NCBI GenBank assembly: GCA_023145965.1
Contig: JAGLDC010000035.1
Span: 14,462 to 78,461, forward strand
DNA from: a bacterium
GTDB lineage: Bacteria > UBP14 > UBA6098
Length of the DNA stretch: 64,000 bases
Reading direction: 5' to 3'
The notes under the pieces: generated by a model
Seen by the model: the letters and a program-made list of their open reading frames with translations, nothing else
Database searches by the model: none
Told to the model about the DNA's origin: nothing
Position numbers and translations under genes: made by a program
Part shown: positions 41,056 through 62,530 of the stretch, in pieces
Numbering within the stretch: the stretch's first letter is position 1
How the letters are laid out: each line of letters opens with the position of its first letter

Positions 41056-41442
41056 ATGCTTTCACTGTCTTCTTTTGCCGGATCGAATATCTATATCGCT
41101 TTCCATAATGTATCTGTGGATGAGTTTATACTTAAAGTCGATGACATTAAAATTGGGAATCAACCGACACACGATATTGGAATTTCGGGGGTTGAAGGTG
41201 TAGAGATTTTTGACATCTCTGGAAGACTTGCGTTACGATTGCTCGAAGACGAAAACACAGTGGAGAGTCCCTATACCTTCCCTCCCTCTGACTACCAAAA
41301 CCATAGCACATGTAGCTACTCCCCCGCAACCCACGAATTTACATGGATACCCTCGACATCTATCACATCCGGTGTTTATCTTGTTCGCGCACAAACCACC
41401 AATGGACAAACCGTATCAAAGTGCATTATATATTTGAAATAA
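41056..41442 (+). pseudogene. Orphan fragment encoding only a T9SS type-A sorting domain (no signal peptide, no catalytic or adhesin domain). Probable 5'-truncated remnant of a T9SS cargo gene
   Basis: The C-terminal about 80 aa (VEIFDISGRLALRLL...SGVYLVRAQTTNGQTVSKCIIYLK) match the sorting-domain pattern. The upstream 48 aa are not signal-like. Only 92 bp separate it from the divergent MATE gene start. Confidence 0.4.
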
Positions 41443-41463: not shown

Positions 41464-41492
41464 GAGGGCGGTCAGATACCGCCCTTTTTTTA
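41464..41492 (+). terminator. Rho-independent terminator (GAGGGCGGT-CAGAT-ACCGCCC-TTTTTTT)
   Basis: Hairpin followed by a T7 run, directly after the orphan fragment. Confidence 0.65.
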
Positions 41493-41515: not shown

Positions 41516-41674
41516 CCGGGGGGCGTCGGAATTTCTAGTTTAGCGGAAAACCAGTTTTCCGCTAAACTAGAAATCGGCATCCGGCCGGAGCAAAATTCTT
41601 ATTTTTTTCGAAATAGTATCGACCGGCCGGACGCCCACGTTGCGCTTTTTGGCGCAACGCCCGACGCCCCCCTG
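41516..41674. repeat. 159-bp GC-rich nested-palindrome element (MITE-like or structured RNA) bounded by a 14-bp imperfect inverted repeat CCGGGGGGCGTCGG / CCGACGCCCCCC
   Basis: Internal perfect 21-bp-arm hairpin at 41531-41551 / 41554-41574. Two self-complementary TCCGGCCGGA boxes. A CGTTGCGC-TTTTT-GCGCAACG hairpin at 41638-41659. Local GC is far above the surrounding level. Confidence 0.5.
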
Positions 41675-46232: not shown

Positions 46233-49200
46233 CTATCTGCCAATCGTTAGAGTTCCATTGCATACTGTTTCGCCACTTTTCTGAATTAGATAAAGATACA
46301 ATCCCTCTTTTGCGATTTGCCCCCCACCCTCACGACAATTCCATACACGATTTGCAACATCGCCTAAATCTATGACCGGCCCTATCGTGGCCTGATAAAC
46401 AAGAATGTTTCTCTTATTAAAGATCAATAATTCAGCCGAACCGGAATACATCTCAGGATAGTCGAAAACAGCAACATCATTAATACCATCCCCGTTAGGT
46501 GTAATGGGATTTGGATAGTTATTACATGAGATCTTTGGCTCCATCAGGAACCACCAAGTAAACTGATTGGCGTTAGGCGAGCAATAATCCGGGGTATCCT
46601 GTGCATAAACCGTGATCATTACGGTATCTCCCGTAACAAACTCGATTCCTGCAATAGATGGATCGAAAGTGAGTCTTCCGCTAGAATAGGTCAATGCCGG
46701 TGAAGACAAATCATACGTTGACCGGTAAATATCCATCCTTAATTCATTGGGATCAACACCTGCGATATTATCTGCAACATCGATCCAAGCCTGAGTCTGG
46801 ACATTCCGAATAAGATCGGTTTGAAGCGGGAAATTATTTGCAAACGTCGGAGGAGTCAGGTCCATATAATAATTCCATTCGATAGGCGCATCGGTCAAAG
46901 GATTGCCCAGCATATCGTCTGCTGTTATAAGTCTAACATTGACCAAACCATCAGCCCAAACCGAGGGTGGTGTCCATGTCAAAACCGGGAAACTCCAATC
47001 AAGCTCCGTAGAAGATGTTGTATAAAGCACACCGTCAACCTCCAGCCCAATAGTCGCTTCATCGATACCGTTGCTATCATCGAGCGTAATAATTATTTGT
47101 TGAAGACTACACGCGCTAACAGTTCCATCGCCCGGCTCGATTATCTCGCCGACAGGCCCGCCGCGGCTTATTATTAGCATCCAACAATAGGTGGTATCGT
47201 TGGCATCGCAATAAGGCGCGGCAGTGTCTGGAAGATCGGCGATTTCGAGACAAAGCTCTATGCTATCGCCGCCAGTCCATAAAATCCCTAGGCTATCGGG
47301 GTCGAACGCCAATGTGTCACCGAGCCAATAAAGCCCAGTGCTCGTAGGATCGATGACGCCATAGCCCTCGACATCGAGCGAAACCGCATCGTAATCGATG
47401 CCCGCAGGCAAATCATCGAGAACCACACGAACAATAGGGCTTCTATCGTCAACTGGAACGGCCGAAATCGGAGTCACCGATACAAGCTCGGGAGGTTCAT
47501 AATCGACCGTGAAAATCCATCCAAGAGGCGCTTCAAGCTCGTTGCCGAGAATATCCGAGGCCGAAAGAAGCGAACAAACTACTGTCGAACCATGCGCGAA
47601 AAATCCCGCGCCACCATCGAAGGTAAGTGTGGGTTCGTCCCAGTCGATCTCGAGCTCACCGATGCCATATCTAACTCCATTTACCGAGAACACAACAGTC
47701 GAGTCATCCACGCCGTTGGAATCCTCGATACTAACCACTATTTCCTGAGGGTCGCAGCTTGTAATCACTCCATCGGTTGGATGTATAATAGAGCCGACAG
47801 GCCCGCCTGATTCTATGGAAAAGCTCCAGCACGAATCCAGTGTATTAGGCCCACAATAATCTGGTGAATCGTTGGCAATAACACAAATGTCTATCAAATC
47901 CCCTCCGGTCACGGAGATAACATCGCAAAGGTCGAAGCTAATGTTGCCGCCAATCCAGGTTACACGGCCATCTGAAACACCCAGATGCTCTGTGCCTTCT
48001 ATCGTAACATCAATAGAAAGCTCATCGAGACCGGAGCCGATATCAGCTAAATCGAATGTAACATTTGGACAAATTTCAGAAATAACTGATCCCGGTGAAG
48101 GACTTATGGCTCCGATAATCGGGGGTGAATAATCTAATATGAAGCTCCAAACAAGCGTATCCTCATTTGGATTAGCATATATGTCCTCGGCGTATAGAAG
48201 CGAACAAACTACCACCTCGCCATCGGTGAAAAAGCCCATGGGCGAGAAGAAAGTGAGCGTATCACTGGAATAAGACAACTCTGGACTCGCAGGAATGCCA
48301 TAACGAGTGCCATTCACAGAAAATAGTATCGATGTCTCTATGACGCCGTTGATATCTGATATGGTTAAAGATATCTCTTGCGGATCGCAGGCCGAATATG
48401 TCGAAGGTAAAGGTTCTATAACCGTGCCGATAGGCCCGCCTGTCGGAACCCAAAATAGCCAACAGGTATCCAGCACATTGGGCGGGCAAAGATCGGGTGT
48501 GTCCTCTGAATGGACACACACTCTAACAGTGTCTCCGCCGACAATCGTAAATGGAATTGCTGAAACATCGACCTGATAATTACCCCCTCCTGTATGAATA
48601 AATACAGAATGTGATATATCATACCAGGTGGTCCCAGCAGATGGGAAATAATCTATTGCGAAAAACGCGCTGTCATAATCGATACCCGCGCCTATATCTG
48701 CAAGTCTCCAGCTTATTGTTGGCACAAGAGTTCCAGTTGCGCCTACGGGCGAGGCCATCGAAAGCAATGGAGGCAAAAGGTCTATTGAATATATCCAACT
48801 GAGGCCTGTCGTTGCGAGCGGGTTTCCAACGCCATCTTCAGCCGAAACAAGCTCGACCGATATTGGTGCACCATCGGCCCAAAGCACTCCCGGAGAGAAA
48901 CAGAGTAAATCGGTGGAATAGCTCAATTCCGGAGAATCAGTGCCGTAATCCACACCGTTTACTCGAAGAACAATAGTCGATTCCTCGACGCCGTGTGAGA
49001 TAGGTGGGTCAATAAGAGGAATGCAGATTCCCTGATCATCGCAGGCCGAAATAAGACCATCAATGGGAACTTCCGATACCGGGTCTATTCCATCATCGGC
49101 CTCCGGTCCCTCTAAATCGACAAAAACCGTCCAGCAAACCTCTAATGTGTTAGGTTCACAATAATCCGGGCTATCAAAACCACCTACACAAATATTAAGT

Positions 49201-52106
49201 GTATCGTTATGCGCAGCAATTACTTCGTGAAGTGTGCTATCTACCCAAAGCGACATCCCTAGGCCTTCCCAAGTGTGAGAAAGCACGCCGAGACCATAAA
49301 AATATCTCGTGCCATTGACCGATATGTAGATACTCGAACTATCGAGACCAGACAGAGAATCGGCTATCCATGCTGAAATGAATGGGAATTCGTCACCAAT
49401 AACACTACTATCCGGCGGCTCGAATCCCCATGCCACCGGCGAACTGAGATCGACATAGAAAGTGCCGTGCGGGAGCAAGAATGTTGCTATCCCCAAATCG
49501 TCGGAAAGAGAATCCAGGCTCCATTCGATAGTGTCACCATCGGACCAAAGGGGTGATGGTGAATATACAAGTGTCGAATCATCCTCGATATATAAATTAG
49601 TGTGCAAAATCGAATATGTGATACCATCGACCGATAACCTTATCGACATAGTGTCGATCTCGACATCATCATTAACAATAAGCCTTATCTCCTGATCATT
49701 ACAGGATGTCCAAGCATAGTCGAAGGGATCCAACAGACTACTCCACGGCGGATCACAATCTACTACCGAATATTCCCATATCTCTGATGTATCGTAACCG
49801 CAAATATTCTGCGCGATAACCATCCAATGAATATTCTCGCTACAACTTGCAGCAGTATCGAAATAGGTTTCCGAGAGGTCCTCGCCAACGAGATCACCAT
49901 TCATATATACATCGTAGGTAATCGGCTCTTCACCGAGAGCAGGCTCCCAGAGTAAACTCAAATAACCTGGGATCATATCCGTTGTATCATCCGGAGGATA
50001 GGCCAAACTGAAATCAGAAGGCTTTTGAGCTATCAAAATCACAACCGTATCGCTTGCTGAACAACCGACACCATCCACTACATTCAAAACATATGTCGTT
50101 GTCGAATCGGGAGCGGCGTTTGGATTACCCATATAAGGATCATCAAGCCCATCTACTGGTGACCAATTGTAGTAATATAACCCATCACCGCCATCAGCCG
50201 TCGGAAATCCCCCAATCACAACGGTATCTCCATAACACACAGCCTGATCGGGTCCGGCATCTGCCACAAGAATTGGATCGATAGCCACCCGAGCTTCATC
50301 GTATCCGATACAACCCCCCGGCGAAATTACCGCAAGACCGTAAACAGTCATGGATGTGGGCGAAGCCGTTATTTCGCGTGTCGTTTGTCCATCGGGTGAC
50401 CATTGGTATGTATATCCCGGGAAATCCGGAGTAATCGTTGGGGTTAGAGTAACTGACTCTCCATCGCAAATAACCGTATCGCGTATATCCACTATTGGAT
50501 TAGGCTCAACGGTAATAGTAACAAACTGAGAATCTATACAATCGATTCTATCTGTAACGACAAGCCAATACGTCATGGTGCTTTCGGGGCAAGCAATTGG
50601 ATGAGGGTCGGTCGGATCAGAAAGAAAGTCCGCTGGGTGCCAGTTATAATACCAGTTATGGCCGGACACTTCGGTTGTATCTAGAACTGCATGAAGGATT
50701 GTGCAATCGTCTGTACAAAGAAGAGTTTCCTCTGCGTAGACGCCAACTCCGAAGTCCGCTGGCGCGGGAATATCGAAGCAGAAATTCTCTGTTACCGGAC
50801 CACCTCCAGTCCAGGTTACATTTACATCGTAACAAACGCGCGTTCCAACAACTGAAGGGCCTATAGCAATCGACCAATTCGCGAGACTGCTACCTCCGTA
50901 GCCCGCTAGCGTGCCAAGATTTTGAGGATTCGCACCAGATACTATACTAAGCCCCGGCGGTAAGGTAATCGCAACCTGAACATTGCTTGCTGAAGTAGAA
51001 CCTGGATTAGTAATAAGCGCATTAAGGGTAAAAGGATTCGGTAAAACCGTTACACATCCGGCATTGAAAGCTGGCGTGCTCGAAGTTATCGTTAAATCGG
51101 TTCCAGCAGAGATTTCTCCGATACCGTAGTAAGTAACGAATACAGCCGAATCGCCTTCACAAACTGAGCGGGGATACCATTTTACCATAGTTGCAGAATC
51201 CCCAAATGTTGATCCAGTGTCTATAATCCAATCGCCATCTGCCCAACCGTTACCAGCACTCGAACCCCAACTCCCATACCAGAAAACATCAGGCATTTCC
51301 GCTTCGAAACCAATCAAAATACCCAGAGCTGTCAGCGCTCCTGGGGCTGGAGGAAAACCTCCTTCATAAGCTCGCCAAATCGAAGGAATATCCGGTGCGA
51401 AAAATATCTCTGCGATACCTGTGTATCCATAGGCCGTGGAGATATCAGCAGCATCATCAGTGTCGAGCTTTGTATCGTAATAAACGATACAACCCACTTC
51501 ATGACAACTGCCATCGGCTGGTTTCATAACTGTTTTAAATTTTACTTGCTCGTTCTCACCGGGCACCCCCCCTAAGCTAACCGCCGATATTTCTTGCCTA
51601 ATATAAACTCCATGCCAGTTATCCCAAATCGAATAGGCAACGCTACCAGATATATAATTCGAGCTTGTATTCGGCATTGTTGCGGAGGTTTTAGCACTGT
51701 AACCATCGACATAATACATTATCCATTCTGTTCCGGGTGAATCAGGGAAAGAGAAGGTGAGTTTCTGGTAACTTCCTACACCAGCGGGATCGCCGCCCTC
51801 ATCGAACTCACCACTGGTCTCATCAACATCGGCACGCACATAACCATTAGCAGGACGCCAGTCCATAGGAGACGATGGGCGTTCCACTCTAGGACTTCTA
51901 TCCATGGAGGTTACCTCGGCAAATTCAAGCTTCCAATCTAAGTATGCCTCAGGGTCGGCATCGACATTTGGCATCAGAGAAAGAAGCGAATCGAGTGTAA
52001 TTCGCGCGGGATTATCGAGATCCGCAAAATCCGATTGTATCATCATTTCTGCAGCCATTGCCGCACAAATAAAGAATATTAAATAAAATATTATTAAAGC
52101 TTTCAT
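46233..52106 (-). CDS. Giant (1957 aa) secreted repeat adhesin-like protein with a type-B T9SS ('gliding motility-associated C-terminal') sorting domain
   Basis: Signal peptide. At least five tandem repeats of about 150 aa (…CDPQEI..., ...SVNG.RYG..., ...PDYC.PNTL..CW.F...). The C-terminus NNYPNPITPNGDGINDVAVFDYPE matches the type-B sorting-domain pattern (PN.FTPNGDG.ND). Confidence 0.8.
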   Translation of the reverse strand: MKALIIFYLIFFICAAMAAEMMIQSDFADLDNPARITLDSLLSLMPNVDADPEAYLDWKLEFAEVTSMDRSPRVERPSSPMDWRPANGYVRADVDETSGEFDEGGDPAGVGSYQKLTFSFPDSPGTEWIMYYVDGYSAKTSATMPNTSSNYISGSVAYSIWDNWHGVYIRQEISAVSLGGVPGENEQVKFKTVMKPADGSCHEVGCIVYYDTKLDTDDAADISTAYGYTGIAEIFFAPDIPSIWRAYEGGFPPAPGALTALGILIGFEAEMPDVFWYGSWGSSAGNGWADGDWIIDTGSTFGDSATMVKWYPRSVCEGDSAVFVTYYGIGEISAGTDLTITSSTPAFNAGCVTVLPNPFTLNALITNPGSTSASNVQVAITLPPGLSIVSGANPQNLGTLAGYGGSSLANWSIAIGPSVVGTRVCYDVNVTWTGGGPVTENFCFDIPAPADFGVGVYAEETLLCTDDCTILHAVLDTTEVSGHNWYYNWHPADFLSDPTDPHPIACPESTMTYWLVVTDRIDCIDSQFVTITVEPNPIVDIRDTVICDGESVTLTPTITPDFPGYTYQWSPDGQTTREITASPTSMTVYGLAVISPGGCIGYDEARVAIDPILVADAGPDQAVCYGDTVVIGGFPTADGGDGLYYYNWSPVDGLDDPYMGNPNAAPDSTTTYVLNVVDGVGCSASDTVVILIAQKPSDFSLAYPPDDTTDMIPGYLSLLWEPALGEEPITYDVYMNGDLVGEDLSETYFDTAASCSENIHWMVIAQNICGYDTSEIWEYSVVDCDPPWSSLLDPFDYAWTSCNDQEIRLIVNDDVEIDTMSIRLSVDGITYSILHTNLYIEDDSTLVYSPSPLWSDGDTIEWSLDSLSDDLGIATFLLPHGTFYVDLSSPVAWGFEPPDSSVIGDEFPFISAWIADSLSGLDSSSIYISVNGTRYFYGLGVLSHTWEGLGMSLWVDSTLHEVIAAHNDTLNICVGGFDSPDYCEPNTLEVCWTVFVDLEGPEADDGIDPVSEVPIDGLISACDDQGICIPLIDPPISHGVEESTIVLRVNGVDYGTDSPELSYSTDLLCFSPGVLWADGAPISVELVSAEDGVGNPLATTGLSWIYSIDLLPPLLSMASPVGATGTLVPTISWRLADIGAGIDYDSAFFAIDYFPSAGTTWYDISHSVFIHTGGGNYQVDVSAIPFTIVGGDTVRVCVHSEDTPDLCPPNVLDTCWLFWVPTGGPIGTVIEPLPSTYSACDPQEISLTISDINGVIETSILFSVNGTRYGIPASPELSYSSDTLTFFSPMGFFTDGEVVVCSLLYAEDIYANPNEDTLVWSFILDYSPPIIGAISPSPGSVISEICPNVTFDLADIGSGLDELSIDVTIEGTEHLGVSDGRVTWIGGNISFDLCDVISVTGGDLIDICVIANDSPDYCGPNTLDSCWSFSIESGGPVGSIIHPTDGVITSCDPQEIVVSIEDSNGVDDSTVVFSVNGVRYGIGELEIDWDEPTLTFDGGAGFFAHGSTVVCSLLSASDILGNELEAPLGWIFTVDYEPPELVSVTPISAVPVDDRSPIVRVVLDDLPAGIDYDAVSLDVEGYGVIDPTSTGLYWLGDTLAFDPDSLGILWTGGDSIELCLEIADLPDTAAPYCDANDTTYCWMLIISRGGPVGEIIEPGDGTVSACSLQQIIITLDDSNGIDEATIGLEVDGVLYTTSSTELDWSFPVLTWTPPSVWADGLVNVRLITADDMLGNPLTDAPIEWNYYMDLTPPTFANNFPLQTDLIRNVQTQAWIDVADNIAGVDPNELRMDIYRSTYDLSSPALTYSSGRLTFDPSIAGIEFVTGDTVMITVYAQDTPDYCSPNANQFTWWFLMEPKISCNNYPNPITPNGDGINDVAVFDYPEMYSGSAELLIFNKRNILVYQATIGPVIDLGDVANRVWNCREGGGQIAKEGLYLYLIQKSGETVCNGTLTIGR

Positions 52107-52275
52107 AAAAAATACTCCTGATCATTAATATACTATTCAATCAAATATATTTATTACATTCGCTAAATCAACAATTCTAATTCTCGGGAAAAAATCGATT
52201 GCTGTTAAATTTAACTTACCTAATGTTTTAGACTCCATTTTTTCTTTTTTATTAATATGCTCATCAATTTTTCCA

Positions 52276-52392
52276 TGCCGCTGTCACGATTTTTGCTATT
52301 CAAATCACTTTGTTTTATAAGCCACATTTTCTTATGCAAAAATCTCCACCAAGCCACCCCCTCGCTCGCGCCAGCGGCTCTATTTTTTTAGT
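52276..52392 (+). promoter_or_regulatory. Intergenic element copy 1: sigma54-like -24/-12 motif TGTCACG-ATTT-TTGC, conserved C-rich tract CCACCCCCTC, GC clamp and T8 run (candidate sRNA or regulatory cassette)
   Basis: A 22-bp identical core (CGCTGTCACGATTTTTGCTATT) and further conserved blocks are shared with 62370-62530. It lies in the divergent region between the giant adhesin gene and the PQQ-repeat lipoprotein gene. Confidence 0.4.
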
Positions 52393-56494: not shown

Positions 56495-58462
56495 ATGTTT
56501 ATCATTGTGGTGGTTTTGAGTTTATCTCTTTCTACTTTTGCTCTCGATACGCTATGGACTCCTATCGATATTCCAACACGAACCGGCGATTCACTTGCCG
56601 CAGATATCTACACCCTAGACTCGACCGCCGCAAAGCCGGTTATCCTAATTCAAACGCCATATAATAAGGCCGATTATAGATTCGCTTCATTTATGCTCGA
56701 CACCTCGGACACCAGCGGATTCTGGGATATTCAGCACTACAATTTTGTAATCCTGGATTGGCGAGGTTTTTACGCCTCGACTTCTGCGGGAAGCACCGGC
56801 TATGATCGCGGCCTCGACGGCTACGATGCGGTCGAGTGGATAGCCTCGCAAAGCTGGTGCAACGGCAAAATCGGCACCTACGGCGGTTCGGCACTCGGCG
56901 ATATTCAGTTCAAAACCGCGCACCACCAACCTTCGAATCTCCTTTGCGCCGCCCCATGGATAAAGACCTATAAAACCCGCTATACGAATTACTATTATGG
57001 CGGTGTTTACAAGAAAGAATATGTGGAAGCGCTTGATTTTCTGGGCTTTATAGCGACCAGTGTTATTCTTTCGCGACCCTTATATTCTTTTGTCTGGCAG
57101 TATATCGAAAATAATTCCGACTATCCCGAGGATTTCAAAGTGCCGATGCTCATGCTTAGCGGATGGTTCGATCATTATCCCGCAGATATTATCGAGGATT
57201 TTCACGAAATACGTTCGCGAAGCGATATTTCTGTGAGGGATAAACACAAGCTAATCATGGGGCCATGGACGCACAGCGGAGTCGGGCAGTCGATGCAGGG
57301 AGAACTTGAATATCCCGCAGCGGCTGATTTCGAGAAACCAATAACAAAAAAATTCTTCGATCACTACCTTCGCGGCGCGGATAATGATTATGAATCCGAA
57401 CCGGTAGGGCAATATTTTTTGATGGGCAGCAACATATGGATAGAAACGGATAATTGGTATTCGCTTATCGACGATACCGATACGCTTTACATTCATCAAG
57501 ACGGCCATCTATTTCCATTGGTTGCACCGATATGGGGCACACCTCCGGATTCGTTCGTTTACGATCCGCGTGATCCCTCACCAGCTTATGGGTTCAACAG
57601 ATTCAATCCAGCGGAACCGGGGCTTATATCCGGTCCGCGCGATATGCGCGATTCTGTGGAAAACCGGGATGACAATCTAATCTACTCGACCGATATACTA
57701 ACCGAACCTTTGACTATTATCGGAAGGATCAAAGCGAAATTATTCGTCGAGTCGAATTGCCTCGATACGGATTTCGCGATCCGCATCTCAGATGTCTATC
57801 CAGACGGACGCTCGATGATTTTAACTCAAGGCATTCTTAGAGGCCGTCTTCGCGATACGCTTGGAGTCGAACACCTTATGGTTCTCGATAGCATTTATGA
57901 AATCGATATTGAAACCGAGGTTATTGCGCAGACTTTTCTTCCGGGACACAAGCTTCGTTTAGTAATTACATCGTCAATATATCCTCATTTTCATGCGAAT
58001 ATCAACGATGGCGGTTCTATGTATGATGAAGGCGACACAACTGTTGCAACGAATTTCATTCATCATAACGAGGCACTGCCCTCCGCGCTGATCTTGCCAT
58101 TGAGTAGCGAGCTTCGCATTTCAGAGCGTTCAATAGCAACTAAACCGAACGATTTCTCCCTCCGTGCCTACCCGAATCCGTTCAATTCGGCGGTGCGGAT
58201 AAGCCTCGACTTCGGAAGCAAATCGGCGAAGGCGTTGAGCACGTCGCCCCCCAGCGCGTGCCGGGTCGAGATTTACGATATAAACGGACGGCGCGTCGCG
58301 GAAATTTCTGTTAACGGGAGCGAATCGGCGAAGGCGTTGAGCACGAACGCCTCCGGCGCGTGCCGGTGGCAACCCGACGCCGCAATCGGCTCTGGGGTCT
58401 ATTTCGTGAGAGCGCATTTTAATGATGCGACTGCATCACGCAGAATCTTGTATATAAGATAA
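56495..58462 (+). CDS. Secreted CocE/NonD (S15 X-Pro dipeptidyl-peptidase) family hydrolase with a type-A T9SS sorting domain carrying two in-frame GC-rich insertions
   Basis: Signal peptide. NFVILDWRGFYAS...GKIGTYGGSALG nucleophile elbow. The sorting domain YPNPFNSAVRISLDFG...VEIYDINGRRVAEISVNG...WQPDAAIGSGVYFVRAHF is interrupted twice by S(K/E)SAKALST....ACR. Confidence 0.65.
   Translation: MFIIVVVLSLSLSTFALDTLWTPIDIPTRTGDSLAADIYTLDSTAAKPVILIQTPYNKADYRFASFMLDTSDTSGFWDIQHYNFVILDWRGFYASTSAGSTGYDRGLDGYDAVEWIASQSWCNGKIGTYGGSALGDIQFKTAHHQPSNLLCAAPWIKTYKTRYTNYYYGGVYKKEYVEALDFLGFIATSVILSRPLYSFVWQYIENNSDYPEDFKVPMLMLSGWFDHYPADIIEDFHEIRSRSDISVRDKHKLIMGPWTHSGVGQSMQGELEYPAAADFEKPITKKFFDHYLRGADNDYESEPVGQYFLMGSNIWIETDNWYSLIDDTDTLYIHQDGHLFPLVAPIWGTPPDSFVYDPRDPSPAYGFNRFNPAEPGLISGPRDMRDSVENRDDNLIYSTDILTEPLTIIGRIKAKLFVESNCLDTDFAIRISDVYPDGRSMILTQGILRGRLRDTLGVEHLMVLDSIYEIDIETEVIAQTFLPGHKLRLVITSSIYPHFHANINDGGSMYDEGDTTVATNFIHHNEALPSALILPLSSELRISERSIATKPNDFSLRAYPNPFNSAVRISLDFGSKSAKALSTSPPSACRVEIYDINGRRVAEISVNGSESAKALSTNASGACRWQPDAAIGSGVYFVRAHFNDATASRRILYIR
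58221..58366 (+). repeat. Two direct copies (58221-58265 and 58323-58366) of a GC-rich hairpin-containing element AATCGGCGAAGGCGTTGAGCACG..GCGCGTGCCGG embedded in-frame in the sorting-domain coding region. A third degenerate copy lies at 60287-60349
   Basis: Direct sequence comparison. Each copy contains a GGCG(G)TT...AACGCC stem. Local GC content is much higher than in the flanking coding sequence. Confidence 0.5.
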
Positions 58463-58622: not shown

Positions 58623-60275
58623 ATGAGTCGAAAAACATTTATTGCAGCAGTTGTTTGCTGTTGCGCCTTTTCTGTCATTGCGGAAGTTAAACAAATTGGA
58701 TTCATGACACAGGGAATATCGCATTCGACATATGATAATATGACGTCTGTGCTCGAAAGCGCAGATTTTCATTGCGAAATCCACGAGTTTTGGGATTTCA
58801 CTACTGCAACAGCCGATACCTTCGATTCGCTGGATATTTTTATCGTCCCTAATGCTTCGTATCTAACCACTCCGGACGCCATACGCGATCATTTCGGGCC
58901 GATCATACGCCCATGGGTCGAGTCCGGTGGTTTGTTGATTGTTTTTTACAGGGTTGGCATCTGCTTCATCAACGATGTCAGCCTTTCGCGAATCGGCGAC
59001 TATTCCTCCTTCGACAGCACGCTCTATATTGCAGATGCTGGCCATCCGGTTGCCTCCGGGGTTGATCCCTCTTTCCTTGGAACCGGTAATTGTTGCATTA
59101 CAGACGATTGCCCCGATTACACTCCAATTCTAACAAATCATGCCGAAATACGCGTTAACTCGGGATTCGAAGAACTTGTCTCCGGTTGCGTTGTCTTTCT
59201 CGGATGGGATTATACATTCCGTTCGGAAAATCAAGATTCAATTTTCACGAATGCAATTCGCTATTGGTCGATGGTTTCCGAAGGCCCGATTTGCAGGAGT
59301 GTTTTCCCTCACGATGGCTCCTGGGTTTCATCGGACACGGCAATTGTGCTGGATTTCTTCGACTCCGATGGTCTCGACGCCGCGACAGCCTCGGTAATCG
59401 TAAACGGTGTTACCTATAGCGTTCTCGATCCTGAGTTGACCATATCCGGTGATAGCCTTATTTTCGAACCTACAACATCCTGGGTCGATGGCGATACGAT
59501 CACATTCGAACTTGTGGGTATCGAAGACGCACTCGGTCACGAATCCCCAGACAGCGGCCTCAGTGTAACATATTATATCGATAAAGCAACGCCGTTTATT
59601 ACATATCGCGAACCCGACTCTGCAGTCGTTTTCACCGAGACGCCGACCGGCGCACTCATTCGTTTTGCGGATGCTGGTTGCGGTATTGACAGCATTGGCT
59701 GGAGCCTTAATATCGAGGGCGTCGATGTCGATCCTTCCGGTGCTGGGGTCTATCTCGAAGGCGATTCTACGGTGATCTTGGATTTTGCTAGCGCGGGGAT
59801 ATCCATTACTTCGGGCGATACTGCGTTTATTTCGCTTTCATTATGGGATGCACCGGATGTCGGCGCGGCGAATACTGTGGAACTATCCTGGTGGTTCCTC
59901 GTAGCCACCGGTATCGCGGATGTAGCCACGCCGGATAATTTTGCAATCTCGGCGTATCCGAACCCCTTCAATTCGGCGGTTACAATTTCTTTCGACGGCA
60001 TAGGGGCAATTCATGAATTGCCCCTATGCGTGGAAATCTTCGACCTCGCCGGTCGGCGCGTAGCGCGTTTGCCCTCACCCTCGGTCCCTCTCCCAGGGGG
60101 AGAGGGAGGGAATTCCTTCTCCCTTTGGGAGAAGGTGGCCGAAGGCCGGATGAGGGCCGAATATATCTGGCAACCCGACGCCGCAATCGGTTCCGGCGTC
60201 TATCTCGTCCGCGCAACATTTCCGCAACAGACGACTTCAGCCGCCTGCACGAAGCGGGTGGTGTATTTGAAATGA
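58623..60275 (+). CDS. Secreted hypothetical protein with a type-A T9SS sorting domain that carries a palindromic GC-rich insertion
   Basis: Signal peptide. No recognisable catalytic domain. The sorting domain YPNPFNSAVTISFDG...VEIFDLAGRRVA[RLPSPSVPLPGGEGGNSFSLWEKVAEGRMRAEY]IWQPDAAIGSGVYLVRATF. The 3' end is about 80% identical at the DNA level to the 3' end of the preceding gene. Confidence 0.55.
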   Translation: MSRKTFIAAVVCCCAFSVIAEVKQIGFMTQGISHSTYDNMTSVLESADFHCEIHEFWDFTTATADTFDSLDIFIVPNASYLTTPDAIRDHFGPIIRPWVESGGLLIVFYRVGICFINDVSLSRIGDYSSFDSTLYIADAGHPVASGVDPSFLGTGNCCITDDCPDYTPILTNHAEIRVNSGFEELVSGCVVFLGWDYTFRSENQDSIFTNAIRYWSMVSEGPICRSVFPHDGSWVSSDTAIVLDFFDSDGLDAATASVIVNGVTYSVLDPELTISGDSLIFEPTTSWVDGDTITFELVGIEDALGHESPDSGLSVTYYIDKATPFITYREPDSAVVFTETPTGALIRFADAGCGIDSIGWSLNIEGVDVDPSGAGVYLEGDSTVILDFASAGISITSGDTAFISLSLWDAPDVGAANTVELSWWFLVATGIADVATPDNFAISAYPNPFNSAVTISFDGIGAIHELPLCVEIFDLAGRRVARLPSPSVPLPGGEGGNSFSLWEKVAEGRMRAEYIWQPDAAIGSGVYLVRATFPQQTTSAACTKRVVYLK

Positions 60276-60497
60276 CGCCGACTCCGCCAAAGGCGGTTGA
60301 GGCCAAACGCCCGTCGGCGCGTGCCGACCGAAACGGGTGGTGTATCTAAAGTAGTATTATGTCATTAGATTACAGATTTAGTTGAGACCTTAGGTTAAGG
60401 CCGCAGTTGTGGTAATCAGGTATCAAAATTGCTTCCTCATTGGAAGGACATCGATTATTTCTAATACCCACTACCTTTTAACTTTTTAAATTATAAC

Positions 60498-62369: not shown

Positions 62370-62530
62370 CATCTCGCTGTCACGATTTTTGCTATTTTTA
62401 AGTTTTTGGTAGTAATATACATTTTCCCGCGCAAAAATCCCCATCGACCACCCCTCTGTCACGAAATTTGCATAGCGGGCAAATTTCGTGACATCGTCCT
62501 TCCCCGCGCCAGCGAGGGTTTTTTCTGGCG
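62370..62530 (+). promoter_or_regulatory. Intergenic element copy 2: same TGTCACG-ATTT-TTGC core as copy 1 plus a 37-bp perfect palindrome TGTCACGAAATTTGC-ATAGCGG-GCAAATTTCGTGACA, C-rich tract and T-run
   Basis: Shared blocks with 52276-52392. The palindrome repeats the same half-site in inverted orientation. It sits between pyrE and moxR. Confidence 0.4.

Follow-up and report, generated by a model that had tools for sequence, protein, structure and literature searches.

Two described systems of short palindromic repeats include copies that are translated as part of a protein. Repetitive extragenic palindromes (REPs) of the GTAG- or CGTC-tagged kind are short GC-rich stem-loops that lie mostly outside genes, near the 3' ends of open reading frames (ORFs). 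A minority of them stand in frame inside genes, where they encode 20-30 extra residues, and several families can share a genome (Di Nocera et al. 2013; PMC3733652). Rickettsia palindromic elements (RPEs) are likewise found in frame in coding genes and translated, and it is proposed that they occur where the protein fold tolerates them (PMC10969869). Here we analyse a 64,000-nucleotide stretch of contig JAGLDC010000035.1 (hereafter the window), in which a palindromic element of about 48 nt, unit (a), occurs twice in frame inside the type IX secretion (T9SS) sorting domain of a hydrolase (gene 1) and once directly after the stop codon of the next gene (gene 2), whose own sorting domain carries two other palindromic units, (b) and (c). 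We moderately favour the explanation that these are REP-like elements tolerated in the loops of a presumably cleavable export tag, with a uniformity that would stem from hairpin-centred gene conversion or from selection on the structure.

The 655-residue product of gene 1 is named by NCBI as a CocE/NonD family hydrolase (MCK5832780.1) and has Pfam matches to Peptidase_S15, PepX_C and Por_Secre_tail. Its sorting domain (residues 554-655) matches TIGR04183 at 35.7 bits (cut-off 23) and, when isolated, PF18962 at 32.9 bits (cut-off 27), and the hallmarks of such domains are present: a YPNPF start, a GxY motif and a K-x-x-x-K-like tail. An AlphaFold model built on an 81-sequence alignment, with an overall predicted local distance difference test score (pLDDT) of 91.9, predicts a seven-strand sandwich for this domain (554-559, 567-573, 589-594, 600-605, 621-625, 634-642 and 645-653). 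The antisense ORF across the same DNA is most likely spurious because the forward frame is backed by domain models and orthologues. The lysyl-tRNA synthetase has about 13 relatives at 59-80% identity and nothing else above 52%; because these relatives are so few, we take the window to come from a deep lineage that uses T9SS-type sorting domains.

Copies 1 and 2 of unit (a) are 51 nt each and keep the frame of gene 1 (Table 1). They share a 23-nt core, AATCGGCGAAGGCGTTGAGCACG, which occurs exactly twice, at 58221 and 58323, where shuffled sequences give an expectation of 0, and the extended copies (58213-58264 and 58315-58366) are 85% identical. When a covariance model was trained without copy 1, it recovered that copy with an E value of 6e-6; covariance-model search of the 64-kb window finds no copy of unit (a) beyond the three listed. 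In copy 3 both hairpins are intact (CCGCC-AAA-GGCGG and GTCGGC-GCGT-GCCGAC) and both appear in the centroid fold, while in the two coding copies stem 1 is mismatched (G-G). A preliminary description of this DNA, made from the letters alone, had recognised the two in-frame copies, the third past the stop of the next gene and a duplicated tail behind it. The three copies are indeed there, the third directly after the TGA. The hairpin that had been drawn in both coding copies, GGCGTT...AACGCC, is present in copy 2 and absent from copy 1, and neither copy outfolds shuffled sequence. The second tail had been called identical to the last codons of gene 2. It does encode the same residues and a stop, but the DNA agrees at only 16 of 21 positions, and all five differences, the exchange of one stop for another included, are synonymous.

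Table 1. Positions in the window of genes 1 and 2, their palindromic units and the features around them (aa, amino acids; CM, covariance model)
Feature	Position	Strand	Evidence or remark
Gene 1: CocE/NonD (peptidase S15-like) hydrolase with C-terminal T9SS type A sorting domain	56495..58462	+	Pfam, TIGR04183, AlphaFold
Antisense ORF, 95 aa, most likely spurious	58130..58417	-	wholly within GC-rich sorting-domain sequence
Unit (a) copy 1, GSKSAKALSTSPPSACR, aa 574-590, between strands 2 and 3	58214..58264	+	CM 36 bits
Unit (a) copy 2, GSESAKALSTNASGACR, aa 608-624, between strands 4 and 5	58316..58366	+	CM 55 bits
Gene 2: hypothetical secreted protein, T9SS type A sorting domain with two other palindromic units	58623..60275	+	
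Unit (b): perfect 32-nt palindrome GCATAGGGGCAATTCATGAATTGCCCCTATGC, translated IGAIHELPLC, loop 1 of gene 2 sorting domain	59998..60029	+	
Unit (c): three-hairpin composite, translated PSPSVPLPGGEGGNSFSLWEKVAEGRMRA, loop 2 of gene 2 sorting domain	60072..60158	+	
Functional tail of gene 2 (RVVYLK, TGA)	60255..60275	+	
Unit (a) copy 3, intergenic type, first base after gene 2 stop	60276..60333	+	CM 53 bits
Second tail copy, CGGGTGGTGTATCTAAAGTAG, RVVYLK then TAG, out of frame with gene 2	60334..60354	+	

As had been proposed from the sequence, the units are additions to the canonical sorting domain, inserted into its loops. Three observations lead to this conclusion. Distant orthologues of the hydrolase (43-47% identity; Zixibacteria, Bacteroidota and Ignavibacteria) have the short canonical loops LPVNSH and DGELAAGEHQVTF; deletion of the units in silico leaves a single contiguous TIGR04183 match, positions 1-70 of 72, with the score unchanged; and the structural model puts both units between strands. 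In that model copy 1, at a pLDDT of about 70, bridges strands 567-573 and 589-594 as a loop or a weak helix. Copy 2 has a pLDDT below 50 at residues 609-618, and its 3' end (GACRW) provides strand 5 (621-625).

Across its copies unit (a) is bipartite. RAAGCGAATC is followed by a 3-6 bp stem on a GNA triloop, by TTGAGCAC, by 6-8 nt and by a second hairpin of 5-6 bp; a typical first hairpin is CCGCC-GAA-GGCGG, and a second is, for example, GTCGGC-ATT-GCCGAC. Stem 1 varies among CCGCC, CCGC, CCC, CGGC, CGCC and CGTGCC. Folding energies of unit (a) do not differ significantly from those of shuffled sequences (z -0.5 to -1.4; -0.5 and -1.0 for copies 1 and 2), and so the evidence for the hairpin is covariation within the family. 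In a 31-sequence alignment, hairpin 1 is paired at 97.7% against 89.9% in shuffles, with a covariation score of 0.132 against 0.033 that none of 500 shuffles reached; slid controls pair at 20-53%, and three of the six pairs have changes on both sides. The compensation can be read in the protein as well. At the S-x-K-y positions of coding copies, Ala and Pro occur as AP (SAKP) in 23 copies, as PA (SPxA) in five and as PP in none (Fisher p 1.5e-4), AA being confined to the window protein, and the Ala/Pro swap is a G-C to C-G compensation in the stem. Intergenic copies have a 5-bp stem with a TGA in the frame that sorting domains use (GGC GGT TGA); coding copies have a 4-bp stem, and the in-frame TGA is gone. 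Because the shorter stem removes this stop, coding copies have been filtered for compatibility with an open frame.

Rfam holds no family for the units or their arrays (window, E up to 1; 11 related loci, gathering threshold), a terminator and promoter scan found no unit to be terminator-like, and a genome-contig scan with the 17-base pattern CGAAGGCGN{0,1}TTGAGCACG, which is too short, returned only single chance matches in GC-rich genomes. In its architecture and surroundings, the unit (a) family behaves like repeats of the REP/BIME type (BIME: bacterial interspersed mosaic element).

Outside the window, unit (a) was found in 40 proteins, nearly all from distinct clusters. Its intragenic copies lie in loop 1 (28 copies) or loop 2 (15 copies) with constant frame and orientation. 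An exact-pattern scan of metagenome contigs gave 28 loci, mostly intergenic, with unit (a) single or in head-to-tail arrays (period 46-49 nt) and in either orientation. Intergenic copies follow stop codons or terminators, just 3' of genes, and are mixed with other palindromic units. Some 55 non-redundant copies could be placed across roughly 30 short loci: seven in sorting domains, 14 within 260 nt after a sorting-domain stop and 34 elsewhere. Thus 21 of the 55 (about 40%) are linked to sorting domains, all of them in the sense orientation, and none lies antisense inside a sorting domain. The association greatly exceeds what one would predict from the small fraction that such DNA makes up, in counts that are biased because loci were found via unit (a) or via sorting domains. 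The preliminary description had suggested that the elements are targeted to the 3' ends of T9SS cargo genes; a strong association with these ends is present, and targeting itself is conjectural.

In a sorting domain at one related locus (L001, 5381-5383), the conserved WQPD motif directly after unit (a) has an in-frame TGA where its Trp codon should stand. The sequence reads ...GAYR*IPDKSLGSGVFLVRA...KIVYLR*, and the gene is called as truncated (P0003). This could be due to a nonsense mutation or a pseudogene, to a sequencing error or to UGA being read through as Trp.

The two units of gene 2, which the preliminary description had passed over, differ from unit (a) in sequence and are much stronger palindromes. 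Unit (b) has a 14-bp stem (z = -7.4), and the related peptides GAIRESPLQ and GAIHELPLQ stand at the same loop in other proteins. Unit (c) (z = -4.9) is found at the same position in many sorting domains. Its third hairpin covaries between two forms: GGCC-GAA-GGCC, in which Ala goes with a GGC codon for Gly, and GTCC-GAA-GGAC, in which Ser goes with GGA for Gly. This pairing was predicted from the proteins and then confirmed on two additional contigs. The sorting domain that holds these two units scores 24.9 bits against TIGR04183 (cut-off 23) and 23.3 bits against PF18962, under the Pfam cut-off of 27. Four further sorting-domain genes in the window have no GC-rich hairpin units.

Such loop insertions extend well beyond this window. 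Searched against the full library, the sorting domain of gene 1 gave 698 matches, 120 of them below 1e-10; among roughly the top 140 representatives of the domain, nearly all have recognisable translated-palindrome peptides. These occupy the same three connections, between strands 2-3, 4-5 and 6-7, in many combinations; examples are PVGAGLRPAR, GAIRESPLQ, ETQNLASLQ, CHSRENGNPE, KSPLSKGDLGG, VGAGFTPAR...GARPSPT, EISRQARNDN and RSLSGAETT. A minority of the domains have a short loop 1 (APxGAEIEIFD). We also took a census of perfect GC-rich hairpins over the window and 11 related loci (180 kb), in which the choice of loci biases the figures. It gave 3.25 hairpins per kb in DNA coding for sorting domains, 0.21 in other coding DNA and 1.78 in intergenic DNA, so that the density in sorting-domain DNA is 15 times that in other coding DNA (p 9e-15).

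The units are conserved beyond what the protein code demands. Two orthologues at 60-62% identity to gene 1, P0010 and P0012, also have unit (a) in loop 2, just where copy 2 lies. When residues identical in all three orthologues are compared, identical codons encode 16 of 17 in the unit and 82 of 280 (29%) in the catalytic part (p 1e-7), and the three genomes differ in GC content. The strands adjoining the unit (VEIFDINGR and GSGVYLVRA) show ordinary synonymous divergence, and for this reason we rejected replacement or homogenisation of the whole domain as the cause. A similar picture emerges among paralogues. Six unrelated cargo genes of one metagenome have a common sorting-domain module, in which similarity starts sharply about 9 nt before YPNPF. 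Within it, DNA identity is 83-85% in the strands that form the framework and 54-74% in strands 6-7, compared to 98% in the loop-1 unit, 96-100% in unit (c) and 89% in the unit (a) that follows the stop. Several unrelated cargo genes have in common a 3' flank, AAATCTAATTTGC, together with unit (a). The preliminary description had supposed that the elements could diversify sorting domains; the striking feature is instead conservation at the nucleotide level.

Several features bear on recombination. Both window copies of unit (a) have an identical hybrid stem, CGGC...GGCG, with its G-G mismatch; they are identical over 23 nt and lie 102 bp apart. The hybrid combines a 5' arm of the loop-2 type with a 3' arm of the loop-1 type, as found in the orthologue L154. 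Because both copies carry this one unusual stem, their sequences point to gene conversion between copies 1 and 2. At locus L155 two genes lie side by side whose sorting domains show no relation as far as loop 1, and 87% identity between strand 3 and the stop. This locus also has a duplicated tail, KRIVYLK-TGA, unit (a) and AGAATCGCATATTTAAAATAG (RIAYLK-TAG), directly before the ribosome-binding site of the next gene, and duplicated tails with longer arrays are found in L130, L134, L136, L137 and L150. The upstream tail copy is the family-consensus GTGTATTTGAAATGA, and the downstream copy looks native in the window and in L155.

Three of these loci (L130, L150 and L136) contain, in frame after the second tail, a silent partial sorting domain that starts with a loop-1 palindrome and reads TAG where VEIFD has its Glu codon. 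The order is array, VYLK*, PPVGATLVVSRT*IFDI(S/A)GRRVAQLPSPS..., in tandem behind complete sorting-domain genes (L130, minus strand, about 4790-4540; L136, minus strand, 1720-1900, degenerate after TWTP; also L150). We considered read-through from the first tail to the second and rejected it, since the stop-to-stop distances of 79 nt (window), 74 nt (L155) and 92 nt (L150) are not multiples of three; only L136 has its tails in frame (offset 156 nt). L154 (10441-12138) and L155 (4344-6026) come from strains that are 96% identical. They have one CBAH-family gene in common, but its linker, its sorting domain and the genes that follow it differ entirely between the two. Loop 1 was rejected as the breakpoint in this pair, as base-level alignment puts the start of the divergence 75-250 nt upstream of the sorting domain. 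Overall, the evidence for recombination is circumstantial, and swapping of sorting domains is suggested by these sequence arrangements.

How might so many palindromes have come to lie in one domain? The connections between strands 2-3, 4-5 and 6-7 of this lineage's type A sorting domains have been colonised by many repeat families. Only frame-preserving variants survive in the loops, which for unit (a) means a stem of 4 bp and not 5 bp. Their translation yields loops of low model confidence, and the domain around them is still recognised by its family profile. In the explanation we favour, REP-like repeats are tolerated in the tag. In Bacteroidota the T9SS sorting domain is cleaved by the PorU sortase. 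By analogy, insertions in its loops would be of low cost here because the domain would be a removable tag, cleaved off after export. Hairpin-stimulated gene conversion among copies and paralogues, a concerted evolution centred on palindromes, is probably the main cause of unit uniformity, with a possible further contribution from selection on the hairpin. Mosaic sorting domains, the duplicated last codons that flank post-stop units and the truncated silent relics would be products of that ectopic recombination.

Several points weigh against this explanation. The copy counts rest on short metagenome loci, and the way the loci were picked, via the unit or via sorting domains, biases them. The covariance model finds no unit (a) in the roughly 4 kb of intergenic DNA of the window apart from the post-stop copy already described, and unit (a) may survive in this genome only as sorting-domain-linked relics. 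All 43 intragenic copies stand in one frame and orientation, though five of the six frames are open; because of this single frame, a few ancient insertions spread by domain duplication fit better than repeated insertion. Conservation across three genomes that differ in GC could equally be due to purifying selection on a nucleic-acid function. Finally, cleavage of the domain in this lineage is assumed from the T9SS of Bacteroidota.

One could go further and speculate that the units are working parts of a system for shuffling secretion tags, or else nucleic-acid signals needed for the expression of T9SS cargo; we consider it rather unlikely that either holds. If shuffling were to occur, palindromes in loops or after the stop would provoke breaks or act as crossover points, and 3' portions of sorting domains would be copied between cargo genes, leaving duplicated tails and silent partial domains behind. 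Either idea, shuffling or signal, would explain why the units outconserve the protein that they interrupt.

The alternative that survives best takes the hairpins to be functional nucleic-acid signals in the 3' coding region of cargo genes, kept by purifying selection at the level of the host and not by conversion; ribosome pausing, stabilisation of the mRNA 3' end or coupling of translation to export would be candidate roles. The conservation just described speaks for it twice over, as the units are kept at the nucleotide level across three genomes of differing GC and exceed the protein framework among paralogues. Compensatory changes keep the stems of coding copies, one of them via a synonymous Gly codon, every sorting-domain-linked copy is in the sense orientation, and REPs near gene 3' ends are thought to be RNA elements (PMC3733652). 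However, many unrelated hairpins occupy the same loops and some domains of the clade are short-looped with no hairpin, so that no single signal seems to be required; the four other sorting-domain genes of the window do without GC-rich units altogether. The window's own coding copies have a mismatched stem 1 and do not outfold shuffled sequence, and the units offer neither a terminator-like feature nor an Rfam match. We regard a signal as an unlikely explanation.

Somewhat more doubtful is a dedicated cassette exchange, in which the units would be recombination sites by which a sorting domain's 3' part, along with the array after its stop, passes from one cargo gene to another. The preliminary description had raised the possibility of cassettes that swap sorting domains. 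The relics that would be expected are present: a second copy of the last codons flanks post-stop units in at least seven loci, in L130, L150 and L136 complete sorting domains are followed in tandem by silent partial ones, an ORF at 41056-41442 of the window encodes a truncated sorting domain lacking strands 1-2, and several unrelated cargo genes have the common 3' flank with unit (a). Ordinary ectopic homologous recombination among paralogous domains accounts for the same relics, however, and no recombinase gene, conserved crossover core or circular intermediate was found. The duplicated tails (14-21 nt) vary in length and identity, unlike att sites, and the strain difference between L154 and L155, the sole one examined, does not break at a unit. 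Nor are whole domains being replaced often, because the strands of orthologous sorting domains diverge synonymously as usual.

It is improbable, too, that the units are passive selfish DNA after the manner of the Rickettsia palindromic elements, tolerated and decaying neutrally, with their conservation reflecting recent common ancestry. Translated in-frame REPs and RPEs are documented in several phyla (PMC3733652, PMC10969869), the single frame of all unit (a) copies fits descent from few insertions, and the window copies do have a degraded stem. Yet neutral loops should diverge more than the framework, and the reverse is seen both in orthologues (16 of 17 codons against 29%) and in paralogues, where units are 96-100% and the framework 54-85% identical. 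Because the units outconserve the framework and compensatory changes preserve their stems, neutral decay of tolerated junk does not fit, and the purely passive reading is disfavoured.

The probability that the insertions are assembly chimeras or sequencing artefacts is negligible: the data are short-read metagenome assemblies and one related contig (L002) ends in adapter sequence, but a second, independent assembly of the sample has the same bases throughout the region (it is identical over 9968 bp save two single-nucleotide polymorphisms, both outside the units), orthologues from other samples and assemblers have the same unit at the same codon position, and unit (a) recurs in 40 proteins from nearly as many clusters. 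The end of L002 (1474-1547) is the Nextera adapter CTGTCTCTTATACACATCT, and because of this we read the C-terminus of P0001 (...GGSLSLIHI) as an artefact of an untrimmed read.

Other features of the window touch on secretion tags or hairpins. The 128-aa ORF at 41056-41442 (plus strand), AT-rich and free of GC-rich units, seems to be what is left of the 3' end of a T9SS cargo gene (...DDIKIGNQPTHDIGISGVEGVEIFDISGR...GVYLVRAQ...KCIIYLK*); a strong terminator hairpin follows it (41465-41486). Beyond this, at 41531-41575, a perfect palindrome with a 20-bp stem, ATTTCTAGTTTAGCGGAAAACCAGTTTTCCGCTAAACTAGAAAT, lies in the intergenic DNA between convergent genes, with a further hairpin at 41638-41660. 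On the minus strand, positions 46233-52106 encode a repetitive surface protein of 1957 aa that ends in ...YPNPITPNGDGINDVAVFDYPEMY...GTLTIGR. This tail resembles the other kind of T9SS sorting signal, type B (CHU_C-like), and has counterparts in L140 and L152; none of them has GC-rich hairpin units. A 27-nt motif, CAT(G/C)(C/T)CGCTGTCACGATTTTTGCTATT, is found upstream of two unrelated genes (52274-52300 and 62370-62396; 93% identity). Near its second occurrence, at 62457-62494, a hairpin with a 15-bp stem contains GTCACGAAATTTGC; this may be a regulatory motif.

Intragenic translated repeats are usually taken as rare accidents, and here they occur in a tag that dozens of secreted enzymes in each genome carry for export. 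This makes the lineage a natural system for studying how hairpin repeats persist and whether palindromes drive concerted evolution and domain shuffling among paralogues, as well as the extent of loop insertion that a T9SS sorting signal can bear. Annotation is affected too. Because the loops lower profile scores, as seen for gene 2, which falls under the Pfam cut-off, T9SS cargo is under-annotated in such lineages, and repeat-derived peptides seed spurious protein clusters in metagenomic databases.

Among known systems, the host domain of the units belongs with the T9SS type A sorting domains. It matches TIGR04183 above cut-off (in gene 1 PF18962 as well) and is predicted to form a seven-strand sandwich; canonical T9SS type A domains have about 72-75 positions and short loops, whereas those of this lineage reach 100-115 residues because of their repeat-derived loops. 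Several classes of mobile or repetitive element can be set aside for unit (a). It lacks the terminal inverted repeats of miniature inverted-repeat transposable elements, and duplicated tails (14-21 nt, imperfect) are found only at sorting-domain stops. In integron attC sites an inverse core, RYYYAAC, and a core, GTTRRRY, pair into a bulged hairpin of 57-141 nt near the integron integrase. Although GTTGAGC of unit (a) fits GTTRRRY, the unit has no inverse core and its stems are only 3-6 bp. Its arrays are not of the clustered regularly interspaced short palindromic repeat (CRISPR) kind, as the "spacers" between copies of the first module are themselves a repeated hairpin module.

Closer parallels are found among the REP-related elements. 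Like REPINs (REP doublets forming hairpins), the units are populations of hairpin repeats kept near a master sequence within a genome over long periods. REPINs are inverted REP doublets, extragenic and tied to a single-copy gene for a REP-associated tyrosine transposase (RAYT); unit (a) forms head-to-tail arrays with a period of 46-49 nt and no inverted pairs, and we rejected it as a REPIN doublet. Membership of RPE-1 to RPE-10 was likewise rejected, because unit (a) is about 48 nt long, comes from another lineage and has no Rfam or other match, so that the likeness is one of analogy. The units do resemble RPEs in being in frame, translated and placed in tolerant positions. RPEs are about 100-150 bp, specific to Rickettsia and spread over many unrelated genes, whereas the units here measure 30-90 nt, belong to a dozen or more families, sit in the loops of a secretion tag and, unlike RPEs, are more conserved than the coding sequence around them.

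The likeness to intragenic REPs goes further. Among the copies collected, the unit families are single or grouped and appear to be mostly extragenic, several coexist, and a minority of copies are translated in frame; as in a REP, unit (a) is a short imperfect palindrome whose stem is kept by compensatory change. The GTAG and CGTC tags of REPs have a partial parallel. The sequence GTAGGGGC or ATAGGGGC opens units (b) and (d), and CGTC opens many of the second hairpins in unit (a) (CGTCGGC...GCCGAC), while coding copies of that unit have CTCCGGC instead. In contrast to the REPs of PMC3733652, which are scattered over genes such as those for replication and repair, the copies here are concentrated at fixed inter-strand positions of one domain. 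Unit (a) differs further in being bipartite, with conserved single-stranded GCGAATC and TTGAGCAC and very short stems on GNA triloops, and its head-to-tail arrays are unlike the inverted dimers of REPs. A literature search turned up no earlier description of repeat elements within sorting domains of the T9SS. Intragenic REPs and RPEs are the closest to these units in function, and what this locus adds to them is the focus of many repeat families on the loops of one domain, a conservation of the units that exceeds that of the host coding sequence, and a recurrent post-stop unit with duplicated tail codons.

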